Source of the DNA: Escherichia coli
GTDB taxonomy: Bacteria > Pseudomonadota > Gammaproteobacteria > Enterobacterales > Enterobacteriaceae
Direction: 5' to 3' (one strand)
DNA: 64,000 bases
NCBI RefSeq assembly: GCF_003334405.1
Contig: NZ_QOWM01000001.1
The notes under the pieces are model-generated. The model made no database searches. It had not been told where the DNA came from and saw only the letters and a list, made by a program, of their open reading frames with translations. This document shows positions 46,763 through 55,339 of this stretch, in pieces (within the stretch, counting starts at the first letter, position 1; each line of letters opens with the position of its first letter). A program made the translations under genes and the position numbers.

Positions 46763-49034
46763 GGAAAACTCCCCAGTTTTGCAGCGATGCCAGTGCCTGC
46801 TGTTCGAGTTGTTGATGATGTGCAATGGCTTGTGGTGGACAATGCAACGGCATTTGCAGCGCCGAAACGGGAAGTTGCGCCAGTTGATAATGCTCAAGCA
46901 CCTGATGCGCCAGCGTCCCGCGTTCTCGTGGTGGTAGCCAGGCCATCGCCGCGCGTAAATCGGGCAGGGCGTTAATAAAATCGTCGTCACTTAGTTGATT
47001 CAAATGGCTGCTGAAACCGGCGATAAATGCCGGCTGACAGGCCAGTTGATGACGGGCTAATGCCAGCAAACCGTGCAGCGCTTCGCCGGATTGTGCCGGG
47101 AAAAACTGTGCCAGCATCGCCAGCGCCGCTTCGGCACTGGCGTTGGGATGTTCCAGACGCATCAGTGCGCCAAGAGCCGCGCCGCGATCCAGCGCCGGGG
47201 CATGAATCGCCTGACTGCGTCGCTCCAGTAAGGCTACCGCCGCAGAAAGCGAAACGCCGGGTAAATTAACGCCGCTATGTAGATCGCGCAGGATATGGCA
47301 AAGCGCCTGCCAGCTATGCAGGTGAGCGTGAAACTCCTTTTCATCCGGTTTGCCGTTGGATTCACACAGCCAGAGCGTGCGATCGATAGCCGCGCATAAC
47401 GTCGTTTGTAATATCTGCGCGCCTTGCATACCGCTAATTTCATCCAGCCGCCATAAGGCATATAGCACTTCCAGCGCCTGGCCCATTTCGGCAAATTGAT
47501 TTTCCTGGGCGATTAATAATGTGAGTTGTTCCAGTAATTGTTGACTGAAGGACGCCAGACCCGCTAACGCCGCCTGGCTAAGACATGTGGTGATACTGCC
47601 GATTCCACCCGCGTCCAGCATATCGGCTTCTAATTTATGGCGTGCGGCTTCCTGGAGTGTTGCACCAAAGCAGGCGGCCTCAATCAATGCCGCATGCTGG
47701 CTAAGTGGGCGGGTTAATTTCCAGCGTTCTTCACCGTTGCCTGCAAGTGTCAGTGTGCTTCCCTGCTGGCGTACAATCCCTGGGATCTCCAGTATTGCCA
47801 GACGATGTAACACCTGACTTTGCGCTAGTCCATTGGGGGTAAAGCGATTTAAGGTAAGCTCCGCCGGAAGAGAGATTGCGGTACGTTCCAGTTCGCAGGT
47901 GACATCTTTTGGCAGAGGCGGTTGTGGCGTAGAAGGGGCAAGTTTACCGAATCCGTCACCCGCTAATGTGTCTATCAACGTTAGCAGAATCGGATCGGTG
48001 TCGGGATGAATAACTCCGCGATAGCTCCACGGCAACGGCGCGTTCAGGGCTTCTTTAATCAGCGAGCCTGCTATGGCATCCAGCCAGTCAGTGCGTAACG
48101 GTAGTTTATGTCCGCGCAACTGTGCCAGCGCCATCGCATGCAGATGAGCGGCAGCCATATCCGCGGTCGAAGCAGGCAAGTGGTGTTGGCGCAAACGGGT
48201 AAGAACCGTTTTTAGCAGTTGTTCTCCCGCCTGCTGTAAGCCCCACTGCCAGCACCAGCTTTGCCAGACCGGGGCAGGCATTCCTGAAAGGTATCCTGCC
48301 AGCACATCAAGGCGCTTTTCACTGTAGGGTGTGAGATAACAACCTGTAACGGCATCTGCCAGCGAGGGCAATTCTGGCTTGTTAATGTCCTGCGGGCATT
48401 CGCGCCACATTTTTGCCAGTGCCGGAGCGTGCCAGCCACCGCAGACGACTAACACGTCGCCATTATTTTGCTGCACCGCCCATGCAATCCAGCGAGCCAT
48501 AAAGGCTTCGCGCTGACGATTGAGTGCATCGCCGGGGAAATCGCCCCGCAGTTGGGCAAAATAGTGCGCCAGTGCAGAGGGTAATGCAGTTTGCTGGCTT
48601 TCATCTTCGAACAAGTGATCCCACAGGTTATCGCTGTTATCCATGCGGGTGGCACGCAGCAGCAAGGTCTGGCTTTCCTCTTGCGTATCAGGCGAATCGT
48701 CCTCTTCTTCACTCTGTGCCCAGCAAGGCAAATCGATGAAGTAAGTTTGTGCCTGAATACGACGAGCGGCTTGTAGCGCCTGCCACTCCGGCGAAAATTC
48801 AGCAAATGGCGTCCAGGCACCACGCCCGGGGGCTGCACCGTCCTGATACTGGCAATAACTGTAAATAGCTACCGGAAGCTGGTGGGCTAAAAACAGTTCG
48901 TCTACCCGGTCATTAAAATCAGCCGGGCCTTCAATCAACACGTATCGTGGCCGCTGGCTTTCGATTAACGATTTCACCAGCCGGGCGCAGGCCGGACTAT
49001 GATGCCGGATGCCGACAATTAACGGCTCGCTCAT
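46755..49034 (-). CDS. yehM: large protein of unknown function YehM
   Basis: ORF 46755..49175; start at Met48 (MSEPLIVGIRHH...) giving 759 aa, 10 nt downstream of the yehL stop. Confidence 0.8.
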   Translation of the reverse strand: MSEPLIVGIRHHSPACARLVKSLIESQRPRYVLIEGPADFNDRVDELFLAHQLPVAIYSYCQYQDGAAPGRGAWTPFAEFSPEWQALQAARRIQAQTYFIDLPCWAQSEEEDDSPDTQEESQTLLLRATRMDNSDNLWDHLFEDESQQTALPSALAHYFAQLRGDFPGDALNRQREAFMARWIAWAVQQNNGDVLVVCGGWHAPALAKMWRECPQDINKPELPSLADAVTGCYLTPYSEKRLDVLAGYLSGMPAPVWQSWCWQWGLQQAGEQLLKTVLTRLRQHHLPASTADMAAAHLHAMALAQLRGHKLPLRTDWLDAIAGSLIKEALNAPLPWSYRGVIHPDTDPILLTLIDTLAGDGFGKLAPSTPQPPLPKDVTCELERTAISLPAELTLNRFTPNGLAQSQVLHRLAILEIPGIVRQQGSTLTLAGNGEERWKLTRPLSQHAALIEAACFGATLQEAARHKLEADMLDAGGIGSITTCLSQAALAGLASFSQQLLEQLTLLIAQENQFAEMGQALEVLYALWRLDEISGMQGAQILQTTLCAAIDRTLWLCESNGKPDEKEFHAHLHSWQALCHILRDLHSGVNLPGVSLSAAVALLERRSQAIHAPALDRGAALGALMRLEHPNASAEAALAMLAQFFPAQSGEALHGLLALARHQLACQPAFIAGFSSHLNQLSDDDFINALPDLRAAMAWLPPRERGTLAHQVLEHYQLAQLPVSALQMPLHCPPQAIAHHQQLEQQALASLQNWGVFHV

Positions 49035-49044
49035 GCATCTTTCC

Positions 49045-50133
49045 TCACGGCAGGCGGTGGCGGGCTTGATAATAAGCCTGCCAGTGAGCTTCTTTATGTG
49101 TGGCGACACGCTGTTCGAAGTAACGGCGCAGACGAGCGCGATCTTCTTCGTTATCTTTGACGATGGTTCCGGCAATACAGTCCACCAGGTCGGCAGGCTC
49201 CCCCGCGCGATTCGCTAAAAACCAGGCGCGGACGCCCACGGCGTGGGCCACGTTCACGGCTTCAGCCGTGGACATAATCGCTGTTAGTGTATCCATTGAC
49301 GTTTTCTTTTCGCCGTTGGCACGCAGATCGCGGAAGGTGCGGACCAGTAACTCCAGTACCGCGTCAGGCACTTTATGCGGAATACCGCTATGGGCCAGCA
49401 AACGCGCCGAAGCACTGGCGACAAGCTCCAGCTCCTGGGCGAAATCCATAATCGGAAAGACAGTTTCAAAATCGAAGCGACGCTTTAGCGCAGCACTCAT
49501 TTCATTGACGCCGCGATCGCGGGTATTGGCAGTGGCAATAATATTAAAGCCTTCTCGCGCATAGAGCTGACTGGCTTCACCAGTGAGTTCCGGCACCGTC
49601 ATCACCCTGTCAGAAAGCATGCCTAACAGACAGTCTTGCACTTCCAGCGGTGTACGCGTTATCTCTTCAAAACGGACGATTTTGCCGTCGCGCATTCCCT
49701 GGTAAAGCGGGGCAGGGACCAGCGCTTCCGTTGATGGACCATGATTGATAAGCAGGGCGTAGTTCCAGCCGTACTTGATTTGATCTTCGGTAGTAGATGC
49801 GCCGCCCTGGACGGTTAACCCGGCATCGCCGCTAATAGCGGTTGCCAGTAATTCAGACAGGAGAGATTTTGCGGTGCCAGGTTCCCCCACCAACATCAAA
49901 CCGCGTCCGGTGGCAAGAGTGACTAACATACGTTCGACAGCGGAGGGACTAATCACCACTTTACGGCTAATATTTTGCGCGCTATCGCCAAGGATAAAAG
50001 CACGGGCCGCAGGCAAACTTAACTGCCAACCGGGCGGGCAAGGTGCGTTATCATTTTGTTTTAATTTTGCCAGTTCATCGGCGTATAACACAGCAGCAGG
50101 CGGACGCTGCAGATGATTATTCTGCGGTGACAT
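49045..50133 (-). CDS. yehL: MoxR-family AAA+ ATPase YehL
   Basis: ORF 49045..50199; start at Met23 (MSPQNNHLQRPP...) giving 362 aa with aggga RBS; Walker A GEPGTAKS. Confidence 0.9.
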   Translation of the reverse strand: MSPQNNHLQRPPAAVLYADELAKLKQNDNAPCPPGWQLSLPAARAFILGDSAQNISRKVVISPSAVERMLVTLATGRGLMLVGEPGTAKSLLSELLATAISGDAGLTVQGGASTTEDQIKYGWNYALLINHGPSTEALVPAPLYQGMRDGKIVRFEEITRTPLEVQDCLLGMLSDRVMTVPELTGEASQLYAREGFNIIATANTRDRGVNEMSAALKRRFDFETVFPIMDFAQELELVASASARLLAHSGIPHKVPDAVLELLVRTFRDLRANGEKKTSMDTLTAIMSTAEAVNVAHAVGVRAWFLANRAGEPADLVDCIAGTIVKDNEEDRARLRRYFEQRVATHKEAHWQAYYQARHRLP

Positions 50134-50241
50134 ATATTCATCCCTGAAATGTATTAATGAAATAAACGATATTTTACGCGCAATAAATGTTTGGCGCATT
50201 AGTTGTTTGAGCGAAAAATATCTGGAAAGCAGATCACAGTA

Positions 50242-50327
50242 AATAAAAAAACCTGCTGGTGAGGCAGGTTCTTTTATTTACTATTTTCAGGCCTAACACC
50301 ACAGCCTGTGCAACATCGTGTTCCAAC
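50242..50327 (-). ncRNA. putative Orz-type antitoxin sRNA, copy 1
   Basis: minus-strand promoter (-35 ttgcaa 50357-62, -10 tataat as plus attata 50334-39), ~85-nt transcript ending at hairpin 50250-50270 plus U-run; 5' end complementary to zor-1 5' UTR (50474-50493). Confidence 0.5.
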
Positions 50328-50565
50328 GAACGAATTATAACCATGGCTGGACCCCGTTGCAATTAAGATAATGAGATTTATAATCCAGACCGTTGGGACG
50401 TTGCGCCGGATCGAACCTATTTCAAGTCCTGGCTACCGGACGGGTGGTGCTGCAGGTGGTGCCCTGATCCGGAGTGCAACATCGTGGTCCAACATACGTA
50501 AACCAGTATCGACAGGCAGTGTAAGGGTAAGGTGCTGGTGTTGCGCTCCTTAATAAGGAGAGCGG

Positions 50566-50655
50566 ATGGACACGCTGACACAAAAGTTAACCGTGCTCAT
50601 TGCTGTACTGGAGCTATTAGTAGCTCTGTTACAGTTGATTGATTTGTTGAAGTAA
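50566..50655 (+). CDS. 29-aa Zor-like type I toxin peptide (MDTLTQKLTVLIAVLELLVALLQLIDLLK), copy 1
   Basis: SD aggag 6 nt upstream; plus promoter -35 50357-62 and -10 tataat 50379-84 gives a ~175-nt 5' UTR; terminator hairpin 50679-50701. Confidence 0.7.
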   Translation: MDTLTQKLTVLIAVLELLVALLQLIDLLK

Positions 50656-50851
50656 CGGGCAAATTGAAACGCATCTAAGGGGGAAAACCGCTTCCCCCTT
50701 TAATAAAATGATTACTGTTTTTATTAATTCATCATATAACTCATGTTTATTTATAAGTTCATCGATTTTATATTCAACGCACCATTTGACCGGGATGTGA
50801 ATATTTATGGTGGGCTATTGGCAAAAAATATCTGGAAAGTAGATCGCAGAA

Positions 50852-50935
50852 AATAAAAAAACCTGCTGGTGAGGCAGGTTCTTTTATTTACTACAGTGAC
50901 GCTAACTTGCTGATTGTGCAACATTTCGTACCAAC
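50852..50935 (-). ncRNA. putative Orz-type antitoxin sRNA, copy 2
   Basis: same architecture as copy 1 (-10 as plus attata 50942-47, -35 ttgcaa 50965-70, terminator 50860-50880); 18-nt stretch gcaacatttcgtaccaac matches zor-2 5' UTR at 17 of 18 positions. Confidence 0.5.
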
Positions 50936-51173
50936 GAATAAATTATAACCATATCCACACTCCATTGCAATTCAGTGAATGAGATTTATAATCCTGCCCG
51001 TTGGGAGGTTGTGCCGGATCGGACCAATTTTAAGTCCTGGCTGCTGGACGGGTGGTGCCGCAGGCGGTGCCCTGATCCGGAGAGCAACGTTTCGTACCAA
51101 CATACGTAAACCAGTATCGACAGGCAGTGTAAGGGTAAGGTGCTGGTGTTGCGCTCCTTAATAAGGAGAGCGG

Positions 51174-51263
51174 ATGGACACGCTGACACAAAAGTTAATC
51201 GTGCTCATTGCCGTACTGGAGTTATTAGTGGCTCTGTTACGGTTGATTGATTTGTTGAAGTAA
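51174..51263 (+). CDS. 29-aa Zor-like type I toxin peptide (MDTLTQKLIVLIAVLELLVALLRLIDLLK), copy 2
   Basis: SD aggag 6 nt upstream; -10 tataat 50987-92; terminator hairpin 51287-51309. Confidence 0.7.
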   Translation: MDTLTQKLIVLIAVLELLVALLRLIDLLK

Positions 51264-51316
51264 CGGGCAAATTGAAACGCATCTAAGGGGGAATACCGTT
51301 TCCCCCTTTAATAAAG

Positions 51317-51637
51317 CTATTTTTCTATTTGTTGGATGAATATATTCTGTAGTTCACGATTAAAAATTGCTATTACAGTTTCAGGTGATTCACCTCGTAA
51401 TTTCCGCTCATCAATACACTCATCTCTTATATAAATCAACGCATCATTTATTAGCGGGTCAGCATCTTCTCGATCACGTTGATGAAATGTTGGATGTAGC
51501 CGGAATCGCTCCAGTCGATAGACGGAACCTGTAAATAATTCAGAGCATTTATGGATCTCAAGTCTGAAGGAAAACGGATCTTCAGGTACAGGGACCTCAT
51601 AATCGTAAATAGCAACCAGCTCTTTTTGCACGATCAT
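51317..51637 (-). CDS. yehK: protein of unknown function YehK
   Basis: 106-aa ORF 60 nt downstream of yehI on the same strand. Confidence 0.75.
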   Translation of the reverse strand: MIVQKELVAIYDYEVPVPEDPFSFRLEIHKCSELFTGSVYRLERFRLHPTFHQRDREDADPLINDALIYIRDECIDERKLRGESPETVIAIFNRELQNIFIQQIEK

Positions 51638-51697
51638 CGCTTTCCCCGCTGGTAAGTCGTGTTAATAACGGGCAGTTGCATCACTGCCCGCTGTGTT

Positions 51698-54600
51698 TTA
51701 ATGGAAAATGACGTCAGGTGCGCTTAACGCCTCACTCAAATCAAACACATCAAGTTCGGCAAAAGTGACGGATTTATTGTCACGGTACACTCGAAGAGAA
51801 CGGAAGCTCATTAGCGCTTTGCTATCAACATTGTAGTGGTTAAAACCGGGTGAAAACTTAAGGACCAGCCGGTACTCACCCAGGTCATAGACAAATGCGT
51901 CCTCATAGCCTGACTCCCAGCCTTTGTATCGCATTCCCATAAGTTGCCCAACGGTAGCGGATTTACCTTCCCAGCGAGTCAGGCTGTTACTGGTTGACTC
52001 GTCAGGTGTGAGCAGCACCGTGCGGCGCGACAACTGGCGAAAAGGCGGCATAATTTCGTAATCGGCAAAAAGCTGTGCAAATTCACTGCGCATTTCTGCT
52101 GTCATTTCTAACGGGTGGGCAATGCCAATCAGAGCATCCGCAGGAAGGTCAATGGGCTCATCCTGCGCATTGCAGAACTCCCCCTCTGCGGCCACACGAA
52201 AGGCGTTGAGTAAACGACGCGGTTCATTTGCCGGATAACCCCCCCATATTAATCGCTGGGTAACCAGGCGGGTAAAGGGATGATTAACAAACAGAGAATG
52301 AAAATCTGCCAGCGACCAGCGTCGGGTGGTACGTAGGGCAGCTTCAAGACGCGGGAGCAGGTTTTTGCTCACCTGAGTAGCATCTTTTTTTAGCCCTTTT
52401 AGTCGGGCCAGTGCCTCGGGCGCTTTCAGTTGATCGTCATCGGCACGCAACCGGGGAACACTTTTCTGGCGAACGTTTTGTTGATCAAAGATAACCGGGT
52501 TGAGGTTTTCATCGAAGCGAACGGTAAACTGCCGGGGACCAAAATCAAAAATCAACGCCTGCGGATCATCAAGACCCAGTGTTGGGACTAATCTGTCCGC
52601 TAACTCTTCCTGGCTTAGCCCGCGATTTTCTGCGACCACCTGAAGAAATTCCGCTGCGTTTTCACGTAATGAAGAGGATTTCGCCCGTTGTGATACATGA
52701 TGCAGCTGTATCAGCGCCATATCATTATTCATCAAGGTAAGTATATTCAGACCAATGACAGCACGGGCAGATTTGCCTTCTTGTGGCCAGGCGAGGATCT
52801 GTGTCGTCAGATCCCGAGCCGTGCTTTCGTCACCAAAGAGACTTAACGCCAGAAATGCCCAGTTGTCTTTTGCGGGGGCACCAGCTTGTTGCCACGCAGT
52901 GAAGAGATCCCAGGCAAAAGCGGCCAGCGTTTGTGGCTGGCAAAACGTTTTCAGTTGTTCCAGCCCGCTATAAAAACGTCCCCCCTGGGTAAAGCGCAGC
53001 ATTTCGCCGATAATTTCCAGAGCGTCATCGGTAACAGGCTGATTATTAGTGATAAGTCGAGGCCTGGACCACATTGCCGGATGCCAGAAATCAGGGGCTT
53101 TTGGAATGCGTGCCGGGTAAATGTCCATTGGACCCTGTTTCAGTAATTGTTCCAGGGCAGGCCATACATCTTTACGCTGCCAACGATTGGCTACAGTTTG
53201 TAGCAATTCGCCATGCCCATGTTCGTAAAGTAAACGCAGGGCAAGTAATGCAGCTTCGCTATTATCGCTGGATTTGGTGAAGACAAGAGGGATAAGTGCA
53301 GTAGCCGTATGTTCCGGCCAATGTAAAATCCACTGGCGAGCCAGACCACGCTGCACCGCGAAACGTCGCCAGACGCGGGCAACGGGCAGGGCCAGTTCTG
53401 TTGCGCCAAAATTTAAAATTAACGGAAATGTTTCTTTTGGACGATGTGAAAAAGCCAACATCAGACCTGGTAGCGCATCCAACCCGAGGATACTAAGAAA
53501 ATAGTCCTCACCCGCGAACAGATGTTTTTTCTCATTGATACGCAGCCAGAAGGTCAAAGCCATCTCACGCGGCAACTGTGCCAATAAATACAGGTTCCAG
53601 ACACTCTTTTCCGGACGATAACGTGAGTAGTTGTCATTTTCCCATATGTTAATTAACGCTTCTATGTGACCGCTGCGGAGCGCCTGTTCTGCTAATTGTG
53701 CTTCCGGGGAGTTCCAGCCATTCAGGATCTCTTCAACCCGCCCCTGGTAGTAATGCCACTGAACAATGAGTGAATTGCGTGCAGCATCCAGTTTTCCGGG
53801 GAGTATATAATTCAGAAACAGCCATACATCATCCCCAAAACCCAGTTCCTGTAATACAACTCGCCCACTTTTTTGTTCCATGCGTTCCGCAAGAGATTCC
53901 GTGCTGAAATAACGGGCAGACTCAGTGGAGGCAAGCCTCTCTTGTTCGCCTGGTTGCCAGTAAACTTGCGGGGTTAATTCGAGCGGTGCCAAATCAAGAC
54001 GTGGAGCTGTCATTTTTTTCTTACTACGCCACGGTGGTGAAACGAGGATTTCAGGCAGATTGCTGTTATCGGTGCCATCAATAACCGGTTTGGGCGGTGC
54101 CAATAAATAACTATTCAGTACTGCCCGGGCTTGAGTACTTAACCACTGCATCACCTCTTCTGCCAGTTGTGGCTGCGATGCCATCAGCGTTTGTAACAGC
54201 GTACGCCAGTATTCATCGCGTGCTTTTTGCTGGGCAGGCAGCTTTTTGTCTTCGATGATTGGATAACCAGGGCGGGCTGGTGGTTCTTTTAACGCCAGCA
54301 GTTCTGCCAGTGCCGCGAGCGTCGCGTGGGGGAAGTTTTTACTGTATTTAGCCACACGTTGCAGGCTGGGTTTGTTTTTATCAGCCACCAGTAGCAAGGT
54401 GTGGATGACCTGCGGATGGTTAATTTGTACCAACAGACTGCCGCAATCTTCTTTATGGGCATACATCGCGAGGCGCGGAATGGCTGCCAGTCCTTGTTCG
54501 CGCAAAAGGGCGGCGCAGGCCGCGTAGCCGAAGTGGTTTTTTTGTGACATGTAGCTGGCTTCGCGATCGCTAAATACGTCCAGGCCCCAGTATCGTTCGA

Positions 54601-55330
54601 GTTTTTTTACCGCCGTATTATCAGTAGCAACGACCTTTAACCACTCCTTTGAATGGAGACTTGACCGGGAGCTTTCAAGACTGGCGAGTTCATTGGCTAT
54701 TTCAGGCTTTTCCGGGAGGATCAGCGCAATAAAAGGACGGCGAATTTTGGGTATTCCTGGCAGTGCGGCAATGAGTTTATCGGCACAACGCTGCCAGCAA
54801 CTTTCCTCTGCCAGCGACAGATGCTTACGCAAACGGAGAGCGAAATCGTTATAGGTCGCGGAGCCATAACCGTAGCCATAGTCCTCGTCCTGATACTGCA
54901 AAGTGACGACCAGTGAATCACTCTCATAACGCCGCGCAATGCACTGACGCGCCATCACTACATCCGTCGCATATTCCAGCCCCTCTTGTTGGACGATTTC
55001 GTCGAGCAACTGTTGGCTGTCATTTTGCGCGATACAGGCTAGCGCCGCCATTGTCCGGGCCGGGATTGAGGGTTTGTGTTCGCCGATCAAGTTGATGGCC
55101 TGCGTGATGGCGGACTGCCACTCCAGTAAAAAATTTTCATAACGCCAGACAATGTTTTTTTTCTTCTCAGCTTTTTGTAGCAATTCATCACCCAGTGTCT
55201 GAATGATGCTTTCAGTGATAACAGGCACTGGTTCGCCCGGCCAATTGCGATGGCTGAGTGGTGTTTTACCCTTTTTATATTTCAGTTCCAGTTGGGCGTT
55301 ATCAGCCAGCCACGGTAATTCCTTGTCCAT
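51698..55330 (-). CDS. yehI: giant MolR/YehI-family protein YehI (no WGR-like N-terminus)
   Basis: 1210-aa ORF; C-terminal region paralogous to the two upstream ORFs; start 9 nt after the upstream stop with ggaaagag RBS. Confidence 0.85.
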   Translation of the reverse strand: MDKELPWLADNAQLELKYKKGKTPLSHRNWPGEPVPVITESIIQTLGDELLQKAEKKKNIVWRYENFLLEWQSAITQAINLIGEHKPSIPARTMAALACIAQNDSQQLLDEIVQQEGLEYATDVVMARQCIARRYESDSLVVTLQYQDEDYGYGYGSATYNDFALRLRKHLSLAEESCWQRCADKLIAALPGIPKIRRPFIALILPEKPEIANELASLESSRSSLHSKEWLKVVATDNTAVKKLERYWGLDVFSDREASYMSQKNHFGYAACAALLREQGLAAIPRLAMYAHKEDCGSLLVQINHPQVIHTLLLVADKNKPSLQRVAKYSKNFPHATLAALAELLALKEPPARPGYPIIEDKKLPAQQKARDEYWRTLLQTLMASQPQLAEEVMQWLSTQARAVLNSYLLAPPKPVIDGTDNSNLPEILVSPPWRSKKKMTAPRLDLAPLELTPQVYWQPGEQERLASTESARYFSTESLAERMEQKSGRVVLQELGFGDDVWLFLNYILPGKLDAARNSLIVQWHYYQGRVEEILNGWNSPEAQLAEQALRSGHIEALINIWENDNYSRYRPEKSVWNLYLLAQLPREMALTFWLRINEKKHLFAGEDYFLSILGLDALPGLMLAFSHRPKETFPLILNFGATELALPVARVWRRFAVQRGLARQWILHWPEHTATALIPLVFTKSSDNSEAALLALRLLYEHGHGELLQTVANRWQRKDVWPALEQLLKQGPMDIYPARIPKAPDFWHPAMWSRPRLITNNQPVTDDALEIIGEMLRFTQGGRFYSGLEQLKTFCQPQTLAAFAWDLFTAWQQAGAPAKDNWAFLALSLFGDESTARDLTTQILAWPQEGKSARAVIGLNILTLMNNDMALIQLHHVSQRAKSSSLRENAAEFLQVVAENRGLSQEELADRLVPTLGLDDPQALIFDFGPRQFTVRFDENLNPVIFDQQNVRQKSVPRLRADDDQLKAPEALARLKGLKKDATQVSKNLLPRLEAALRTTRRWSLADFHSLFVNHPFTRLVTQRLIWGGYPANEPRRLLNAFRVAAEGEFCNAQDEPIDLPADALIGIAHPLEMTAEMRSEFAQLFADYEIMPPFRQLSRRTVLLTPDESTSNSLTRWEGKSATVGQLMGMRYKGWESGYEDAFVYDLGEYRLVLKFSPGFNHYNVDSKALMSFRSLRVYRDNKSVTFAELDVFDLSEALSAPDVIFH

Positions 55331-55339
55331 GCTCTTTCC

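Follow-up and report, generated by a model that had tools for sequence, protein, structure and literature searches.

Several intercistronic hairpins are known to stabilize bacterial mRNA, among them the REP stem loops of malE-malF in Escherichia coli, the stem loop of pufBA-pufLMX in Rhodobacter and that of papB-papA. Other hairpins in intercistronic gaps are internal, intrinsic attenuators of an operon, as are the rpsU-dnaG terminator and the rplL-rpoB attenuator. A further type is the bidirectional intrinsic terminator, known from SEnd-seq work, in which the hairpin stands between an A-tract and a U-tract. Stem loops also mark the processed 3′ ends of Rho-terminated transcripts and are thought to stop exonuclease trimming there (Dar and Sorek 2018, PMC6061677).

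The stem loop described here lies between the genes yehI and yehK in a 64,000-nt stretch of the E. coli chromosome, hereafter called the window. By analogy, it would work most like the intercistronic stabilizers of malE-malF, puf and pap and like the processed-end stem loops (PMC6061677). With the stabilizers it shares a stable stem loop just 3′ of the upstream cistron and a helix that is conserved without a U-tract, and the effect to be expected would likewise be a higher steady-state level of the upstream segment. It differs from the malE-malF REP elements in being single-copy and unrelated in sequence. The processed-end stem loops (PMC6061677) are similar in that a stable hairpin is found past a stop codon without a canonical U-tract; unlike these, however, the yehI-yehK hairpin is followed by a translated gene and not by a 3′ UTR. 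No earlier description of the yehI-yehK hairpin was found in the literature, and the hairpin is an ordinary instance of a well-known kind.

Position and secondary structure of the stem loop

Both genes are on the minus strand of the window. The upstream cistron, yehI (51698-55330), codes for a DUF4132 protein of 1210 aa, as displayed by the open reading frames of the window and the RefSeq annotation. The downstream cistron, yehK (51317-51637), codes for a protein of 106 aa that has homologs in Escherichia alone. A gap of 60 nt (51638-51697) separates the two. On the mRNA strand the spacer reads UAA-AACACAG-CGGGCAGU-GAUGCA-ACUGCCCG-UUAUUAACACGACUUACCAGCGGGGAAAGCG-AUG, where UAA is the stop codon of yehI (51698-51700, minus strand), 7 nt upstream of the core stem, and AUG is the start codon of yehK, 31 nt past the end of the core. 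An 801-nt query around the hairpin is 100% identical in E. coli ECCTRSRTH03, where the RefSeq gene names yehI and yehK are the same, and the 801-nt region is found in 5232 of 5426 complete E. coli genomes.

The plus strand carries the palindrome CGGGCAGT-N6-ACTGCCCG at 51669-51690, with the arms cgggcagt at 51669-51676 and actgcccg at 51683-51690 and the loop tgcatc at 51677-51682. In the mRNA (minus strand) the core hairpin has the 5′ arm CGGGCAGU at 51690-51683, the loop GAUGCA at 51682-51677 and the 3′ arm ACUGCCCG at 51676-51669. The original prediction had placed an 8-bp stem at exactly these positions on the transcribed strand, in a 60-nt gap between yehI and yehK, and it is correct in each of these points when compared with the open reading frames of the window and with RefSeq.

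The core stem consists of 8 Watson-Crick pairs, 6 of which are G-C, and closes a 6-nt loop, with a dG of -14.9 kcal/mol. It can be extended to an imperfect 12-pair helix (51665-51694, minus strand), with ACAG (51694-51691) opposite UUAU (51668-51665); in E. coli the added positions are, from the outside inwards, A-U, a C/A mismatch, A-U and G.U. RNAfold adds the A-U and the G.U to the core to give 10 pairs. Every core pair has a probability of 0.98-1.0 in a 211-nt context, and the 83-nt region has a z of -3.0, with 1 of 200 shuffles folding equally well.

The 3′ part of the spacer (51638-51668, minus strand) consists of a weak U-rich tail, UUAUUAAC, followed by a variable stretch and then by the purine-rich, Shine-Dalgarno-like sequence GGGGA (51647-51643, minus strand), 5 nt before the yehK AUG. 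In this part, 25 of the 31 alignment columns are variable.

Perfect stems that have 8 bp or more, 6 or more G-C pairs and a loop of 3-8 nt number 10 in the window, nested ones included, compared with about 1.5 expected per shuffled 64-kb window. The single sequence by itself makes only a moderate case beyond chance, and chance is not excluded by it.

Searches with the covariance models of Rfam 15 showed no family match at the hairpin. The sole overlap is with isrD, at 18 bits compared with a gathering score of 37 (E = 4.1), and an Rfam search by E-value over positions 49000-53000 returned nothing at the hairpin. The hairpin was also considered as a REP/BIME or another dispersed palindromic repeat. 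This was rejected, as blastn with an 11-nt word finds the sequence once per genome (median 1, highest 2) across 5229 E. coli genomes, and the core has its sole match in the 64-kb window when up to 2 mismatches are allowed.

Conservation of the stem loop in Escherichia

An alignment of 14 distinct yehI-yehK junctions was made, which represents at least 7 lineages, all of the genus Escherichia. Its members are six diverse E. coli, E. fergusonii, E. albertii, E. marmotae, E. whittamii, Escherichia E1V33 and MOD1-EC7003, a marmotae-like contig (L015) and a deep metagenomic lineage (L009). Two loci were left out: L014, for a mis-registered gene call, and L017, in which G is converted to A. The latter, a contig of SRR27475672, displays many G to A changes, including in the 5′ arm of the hairpin (CAAACAGT), and probably derives from bisulfite or deaminase-treated reads and is not a natural variant.

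A scan of contigs with the C-terminus of YehI gave three Escherichia loci only. The nearest homolog of yehI that is not Escherichia-like (locus L027, 57% identity) adjoins a MoxR gene directly and has neither yehK nor a comparable hairpin, and the comparison is therefore confined to the genus. Since this distant locus lacks both, the hairpin appears to be specific to the Escherichia yehI-yehK junction.

Variable columns are few in the stem (3 of 16), whereas all 6 columns of the loop and 31 of the other 38 columns of the spacer vary. At the third codon positions the variable columns number 13 of 19 for yehI and 9 of 12 for yehK. The stem differs significantly from the rest of the spacer (3/16 compared with 37/44; Fisher p = 5e-6) and from the flanking third codon positions (3/16 compared with 22/31; Fisher p = 0.0016), and it is conserved to the same degree as codon positions 1 and 2 of yehI. 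Measured against the window, E. albertii has a synonymous divergence of 0.7-0.9 and the deep lineage L009 one of 1.4-2.0. With divergence that high, a neutral stretch of 16 nt would be largely rewritten.

Within E. coli, exact 30-mer searches show two loop versions, GAUGCA in 3857 genomes and GAUGCG in 1112, which together account for 4969 of the 5229 genomes that carry the locus. In the most divergent E. coli variants that were fetched, differences are confined to the loop and the flanks. The comparative data settle the question of chance, and the stem is more than a chance palindrome.

Pairing in the core is maintained at 8 of 8 pairs in 14 of 14 sequences (112 cells, 100%). Three one-sided changes are found in the core: a C to U change in the 5′ arm (E. 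marmotae and L015), a C to U change in the 3′ arm (L009) and an A to G change (L009). Each of these produces a G.U pair on the mRNA strand and an A/C mismatch on the opposite strand. The ninth pair, which adjoins the core, is G.U in 9 sequences, G-C in 3 and A-U in 2. Further out, the position of the C/A mismatch in the E. coli extension is C-G in E. marmotae and L015 and U-A in E1V33. In the extended helix 91.7% of cells are paired, and some species display a perfect 12-bp helix. The difference between the strands is also seen in folding energies: the sense hairpin stays between -11.9 and -14.9 kcal/mol in every lineage, whereas the antisense hairpin decays to -7.6 kcal/mol in E. marmotae and L015 and to -6.6 kcal/mol in L009. 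By a rough estimate of our own, five independent stem changes that are all compatible with pairing on the sense strand have a p of ~0.02 under neutrality.

It should be noted that no double compensatory change within the 8-bp core is found in the 14 sequences, and the evidence from covariation thus rests on wobble changes and on the contrast in rates. As no core pair varies on both sides, a shuffle control of core pairing is uninformative. The pattern is that of a conserved cis-acting RNA structure in general, with pairs preserved and with the loop and flanks changing faster. Wobble-compatible changes together with the rate contrast point to selection on an RNA helix and argue against a DNA operator and against an antisense element. 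The alignment is therefore good evidence, though not textbook covariation, for an RNA stem loop that is under purifying selection for pairing in the sense yehI-yehK transcript throughout the genus. Two roles had been suggested for the hairpin by the original prediction, attenuation of read-through into yehK and RNA processing or stability. The premise common to both, a selected structure in the sense-strand RNA, is borne out by the pairing in 14 of 14 sequences and by the variable loop; attenuation fares less well, for the reasons that follow.

Possible transcription termination at the yehI-yehK junction

The hairpin may act as a leaky intrinsic (Rho-independent) terminator or attenuator, whereby the hairpin and the UUAUU tail release some polymerases after yehI and so lower the transcription of yehK. 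The efficiency could vary with how closely translation of yehI follows transcription. This reading is possible but doubtful. The G+C-rich stem of 8-10 bp with its 6-nt loop is found directly past the stop codon, and its dimensions fall within those of intrinsic terminators (a G+C-rich stem of ~5-14 bp and a loop of 3-8 nt). In E. coli, E. fergusonii, E. albertii and E. whittamii 4 of the first 5 bases of the tail are U (UUAUU, with UUAUC as a further form), and L009 has CAUUUUU. For these four species tail scores are 3.3-3.6 and a d'Aubenton-Carafa-type discriminant is +8 to +14, which is weakly positive for E. coli.

However, the mRNA tail UUAUUAAC has 4 U in 8 nt and falls short of the U-tract of an intrinsic terminator. 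In a simple terminator scan with a cut-off of at least 5 U in 8 nt, the mRNA strand is not called, and solely the opposite strand passes. The U-tract is also not conserved across lineages. It is absent in E. marmotae, where, as in L015, the tail is CUGUCUGAC (CUGUC); the tail score drops to 2.3 in E. marmotae, and the discriminant is -22 for E. marmotae and L015 and negative for L009. In E. marmotae, L015 and E1V33 the bases of the tail are drawn into the extended stem by pairing. A helix that is conserved without a U-tract is the pattern expected of a decay barrier or of a processed 3′ end, and not of a canonical terminator.

The curated Term-seq data of Adams et al. 2021, which cover three growth conditions, list no 3′ end on either strand from 2192992 to 2204446 of MG1655, and accordingly none at the hairpin (2203907-2203957), in a cluster that is poorly expressed. 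As the region is poorly expressed in K-12, this absence is weak negative evidence. H-NS/StpA represses at least yehL and yehM of the cluster (PMC3686432). Neither yehI nor yehK is mentioned in the supplements of TERMITe, SMRT-Cappable-seq and TRS.

A further argument comes from yehK itself. The gene has a dN/dS of 0.16-0.22, which indicates purifying selection, and a sequence scan showed no promoter-like site for it on its strand anywhere in yehI. A gene that is constrained and has no promoter-like site of its own must be transcribed by read-through of the hairpin. An efficient terminator is thereby excluded, and any termination has to be of low efficiency. In its position, a G+C-rich hairpin in an intercistronic gap with a downstream gene that needs read-through, the junction is like those of rpsU-dnaG and rplL-rpoB; unlike these, its U-tract (UUAUUAAC) is weak and unconserved, and no 3′ end is listed in MG1655 Term-seq. 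The proposal that the hairpin attenuates read-through into yehK is weakened by the combination of a weak, unconserved U-tract, the lack of a Term-seq 3′ end and a constrained yehK without its own promoter.

Genes adjacent to the stem loop

YehK has no Pfam domain, and the aa motif NDALIYIRDE(F/C)IDE is strongly conserved in it (loci L003-L016). It looks like a lineage-specific addition to a cluster of DUF4132, MoxR, DUF5682, vWA and SWIM genes. Three large DUF4132 paralogs are arranged head to tail: yehI, an intact yehH/molR-type gene at 55340-58372 and a third gene upstream (51698-58372 of the window and onward; 13041-18801 in locus L001). The gap between yehH and yehI is 9 nt only and is without a hairpin. 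The PADLOC defense models gave zero matches for YehK, YehI, YehH, YehL, YehM and the product of the next open reading frame.

Broken copies of both genes are present in natural isolates. A frameshifted yehK is found in strains PSUO2, AVS0151 and SWHEFF_68 (loci L021, L023 and L025), and a disrupted yehI in O91:H21 FWSEC0008 and in one E. marmotae contig (loci L022 and L005). The hairpin is intact in all of these loci for which the junction was extracted, i.e., in all except L025. The yeh cluster is dispensable in some backgrounds.

On the other side of yehK, the yehK-yehL gap (50200-51316) holds two tandem copies, ~608 bp each, of the zor-orz type I toxin-antitoxin system, a known system (Fozo et al. 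2010, PMC2887945). The toxin open reading frames zorO (50566-50655) and zorP (51174-51263), each of 29 aa, are on the plus strand, and the OrzO/OrzP sRNAs are on the minus strand at 50245-50320 and 50855-50928 (Rfam RF02083, 99.9 and 88.8 bits). A 10-bp hairpin at 51285-51308, which reads AAGGGGGAAUACCGUUUCCCCCUU on the plus strand and continues into a U-rich tail, is situated 9 nt past the yehK stop codon and 22 nt past the zorP stop codon. It is duplicated at 50677-50700 and is probably the terminator of the zor mRNA, in which case zorP and yehK are convergent with overlapping 3′ ends. On its own strand yehK has no U-tract terminator before the OrzP terminator.

In the K-12-like locus L002 (2808-2883; MG1655 ~2204410-2204485) there is a full-score gene for an OrzO-type sRNA (99.9 bits) and no zor toxin open reading frame. 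The sRNA gene keeps a TTGCAA-17-TATAAT promoter and a terminator. The only Term-seq 3′ ends of the neighborhood in Adams et al. 2021, at 2204446 and 2204485, are listed as ‘orphan’ and are found inside and at the end of this sRNA. The K-12 gene has the appearance of an orphan antitoxin RNA that is expressed, even though the locus has been described as absent from MG1655. The divergent promoter-like site of zor, TTGCAA-16-TATAAT (50357-50384 and 50965-50992 of the window, plus strand), is also retained in K-12 (L002, 2900-2960) and points into yehK. Antisense RNA from this site could cross yehK in the direction of the yehI-yehK hairpin.

Other possible roles for the stem loop

A role in the translation of yehK is improbable. 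The hairpin could shape the fold of the spacer, either as the flank of a standby site or by keeping the Shine-Dalgarno-like sequence from pairing with the yehI coding region. It is indeed only 31 nt upstream of the yehK AUG, and a second helix, which takes in the Shine-Dalgarno-like region and the AUG, is predicted for the window sequence. However, this second helix is not conserved, its 5′ arm being deleted in E. marmotae, L015 and E. whittamii; the main hairpin makes no contact with the Shine-Dalgarno-like sequence, and there is no link to translation in the data.

Slightly less probable still is that the palindrome serves as a terminator on the plus strand, where transcripts from the zor toxin promoters of the yehK-yehL gap, which would run antisense across yehK, would be halted before they enter yehI. 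On that strand CUGUGUUUUA comes after the hairpin, which ranks first among the terminator-like matches of the scan. The zorP and zorO genes face yehK with promoter-like sites, one of which survives in K-12, and a microarray study of sigma-S in vitro run-off transcription reported an antisense signal for the probe set that extends from the yehI stop codon to the yehK-yehL gap (PMC3141248). With AAAACACAG upstream of the E. coli hairpin, UUAUU downstream and a plus strand that passes the scan, the arrangement is also like that of bidirectional terminators. Unlike these, however, it lies between co-directional genes, and neither the antisense pairing nor the U-run is conserved: every stem change breaks the plus-strand pairing by an A/C mismatch, with the loss of antisense stability in E. 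marmotae, L015 and L009 given above, and the U-run is limited to the coli/fergusonii group, with GUGUGUU or CUUUCUGUU elsewhere. In addition, zorP has its own hairpin and U-rich tail (51285-51330), and no minus-strand 3′ end near 22039xx is found in the Term-seq tables for MG1655.

Least probable of all is that the palindrome has no role at the RNA level and is either an operator, bound as DNA by a dimeric protein, or a relic left by the insertion of yehK. Inverted-repeat binding sites, too, typically have conserved arms around a variable spacer, and the absence of yehK from the distant yehI-MoxR locus makes the junction lineage-specific. However, the changes in the arms break the DNA symmetry but always keep RNA pairing on one strand, and in the extension changes on one side or the other restore the mismatch to a pair. 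The site is also within a transcription unit with no promoter nearby, and a neutral relic would not last beyond a synonymous divergence of 1.

Possible function of the stem loop

From the structure, its strand and the conservation of its pairing we infer that the hairpin acts as an exonuclease barrier or 3′ end marker, i.e., that it sets the 3′ end of the yehI segment of the mRNA and shields it, with at most leaky termination in E. coli. The probability of this reading is put at about 0.45. It ranks ahead of the leaky attenuator, which is followed by regulation of yehK translation, by the opposite-strand terminator and by the DNA palindrome or relic. The stem loop would form in the sense transcript right after the yehI stop codon, and RNA polymerase would mostly pass it, so that yehK is expressed. 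After cleavage or Rho-type termination downstream, 3′-to-5′ exonucleases would stall at the stem, and the yehI segment would outlive the yehK segment. The UUAUU tail in E. coli may add slight intrinsic termination.

In principle, Term-seq should pick up a stable processed 3′ end, and the lack of a listed end counts against protection of the 3′ end, though in K-12 the cluster is silenced by H-NS or poorly expressed. A decay barrier and a leaky terminator look alike at the sequence level and cannot be told apart there. Nevertheless, of the two roles named in the original prediction, a role in stability or at the 3′ end appears more likely than attenuation.

A connection to the translation of yehI should also be considered. 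A ribosome that terminates on yehI would overlap the base of the stem, which is 5-7 nt past the stop codon, and the action of the hairpin may therefore depend on yehI translation. The hairpin might then be a translation-coupled valve, in which the stem forms, and terminates transcription or exposes the RNA to decay, only if translation of yehI lags behind the polymerase; in a variant of this model, the yehI 3′ fragment that ends in the hairpin would be a small RNA. We regard this as a long shot. If true, the valve would set the ratio of YehK to YehI in an uncharacterized DUF4132/MoxR/vWA/SWIM cluster.

The significance of the stem loop is modest, and it opens no new question. For annotation, it shows that a poor U-tract does not preclude strong selection on a hairpin, and that a palindrome of this sort can be assigned to the sense strand when its wobble changes are strand-specific. 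For Escherichia, it adds a clearly selected cis-acting RNA structure to the H-NS-silenced cluster of yehH/molR, yehI and yehK, which precedes the MoxR/vWA/SWIM genes yehLMPQ. It also suggests that one transcript deliberately yields YehI and the Escherichia-only YehK in different amounts.
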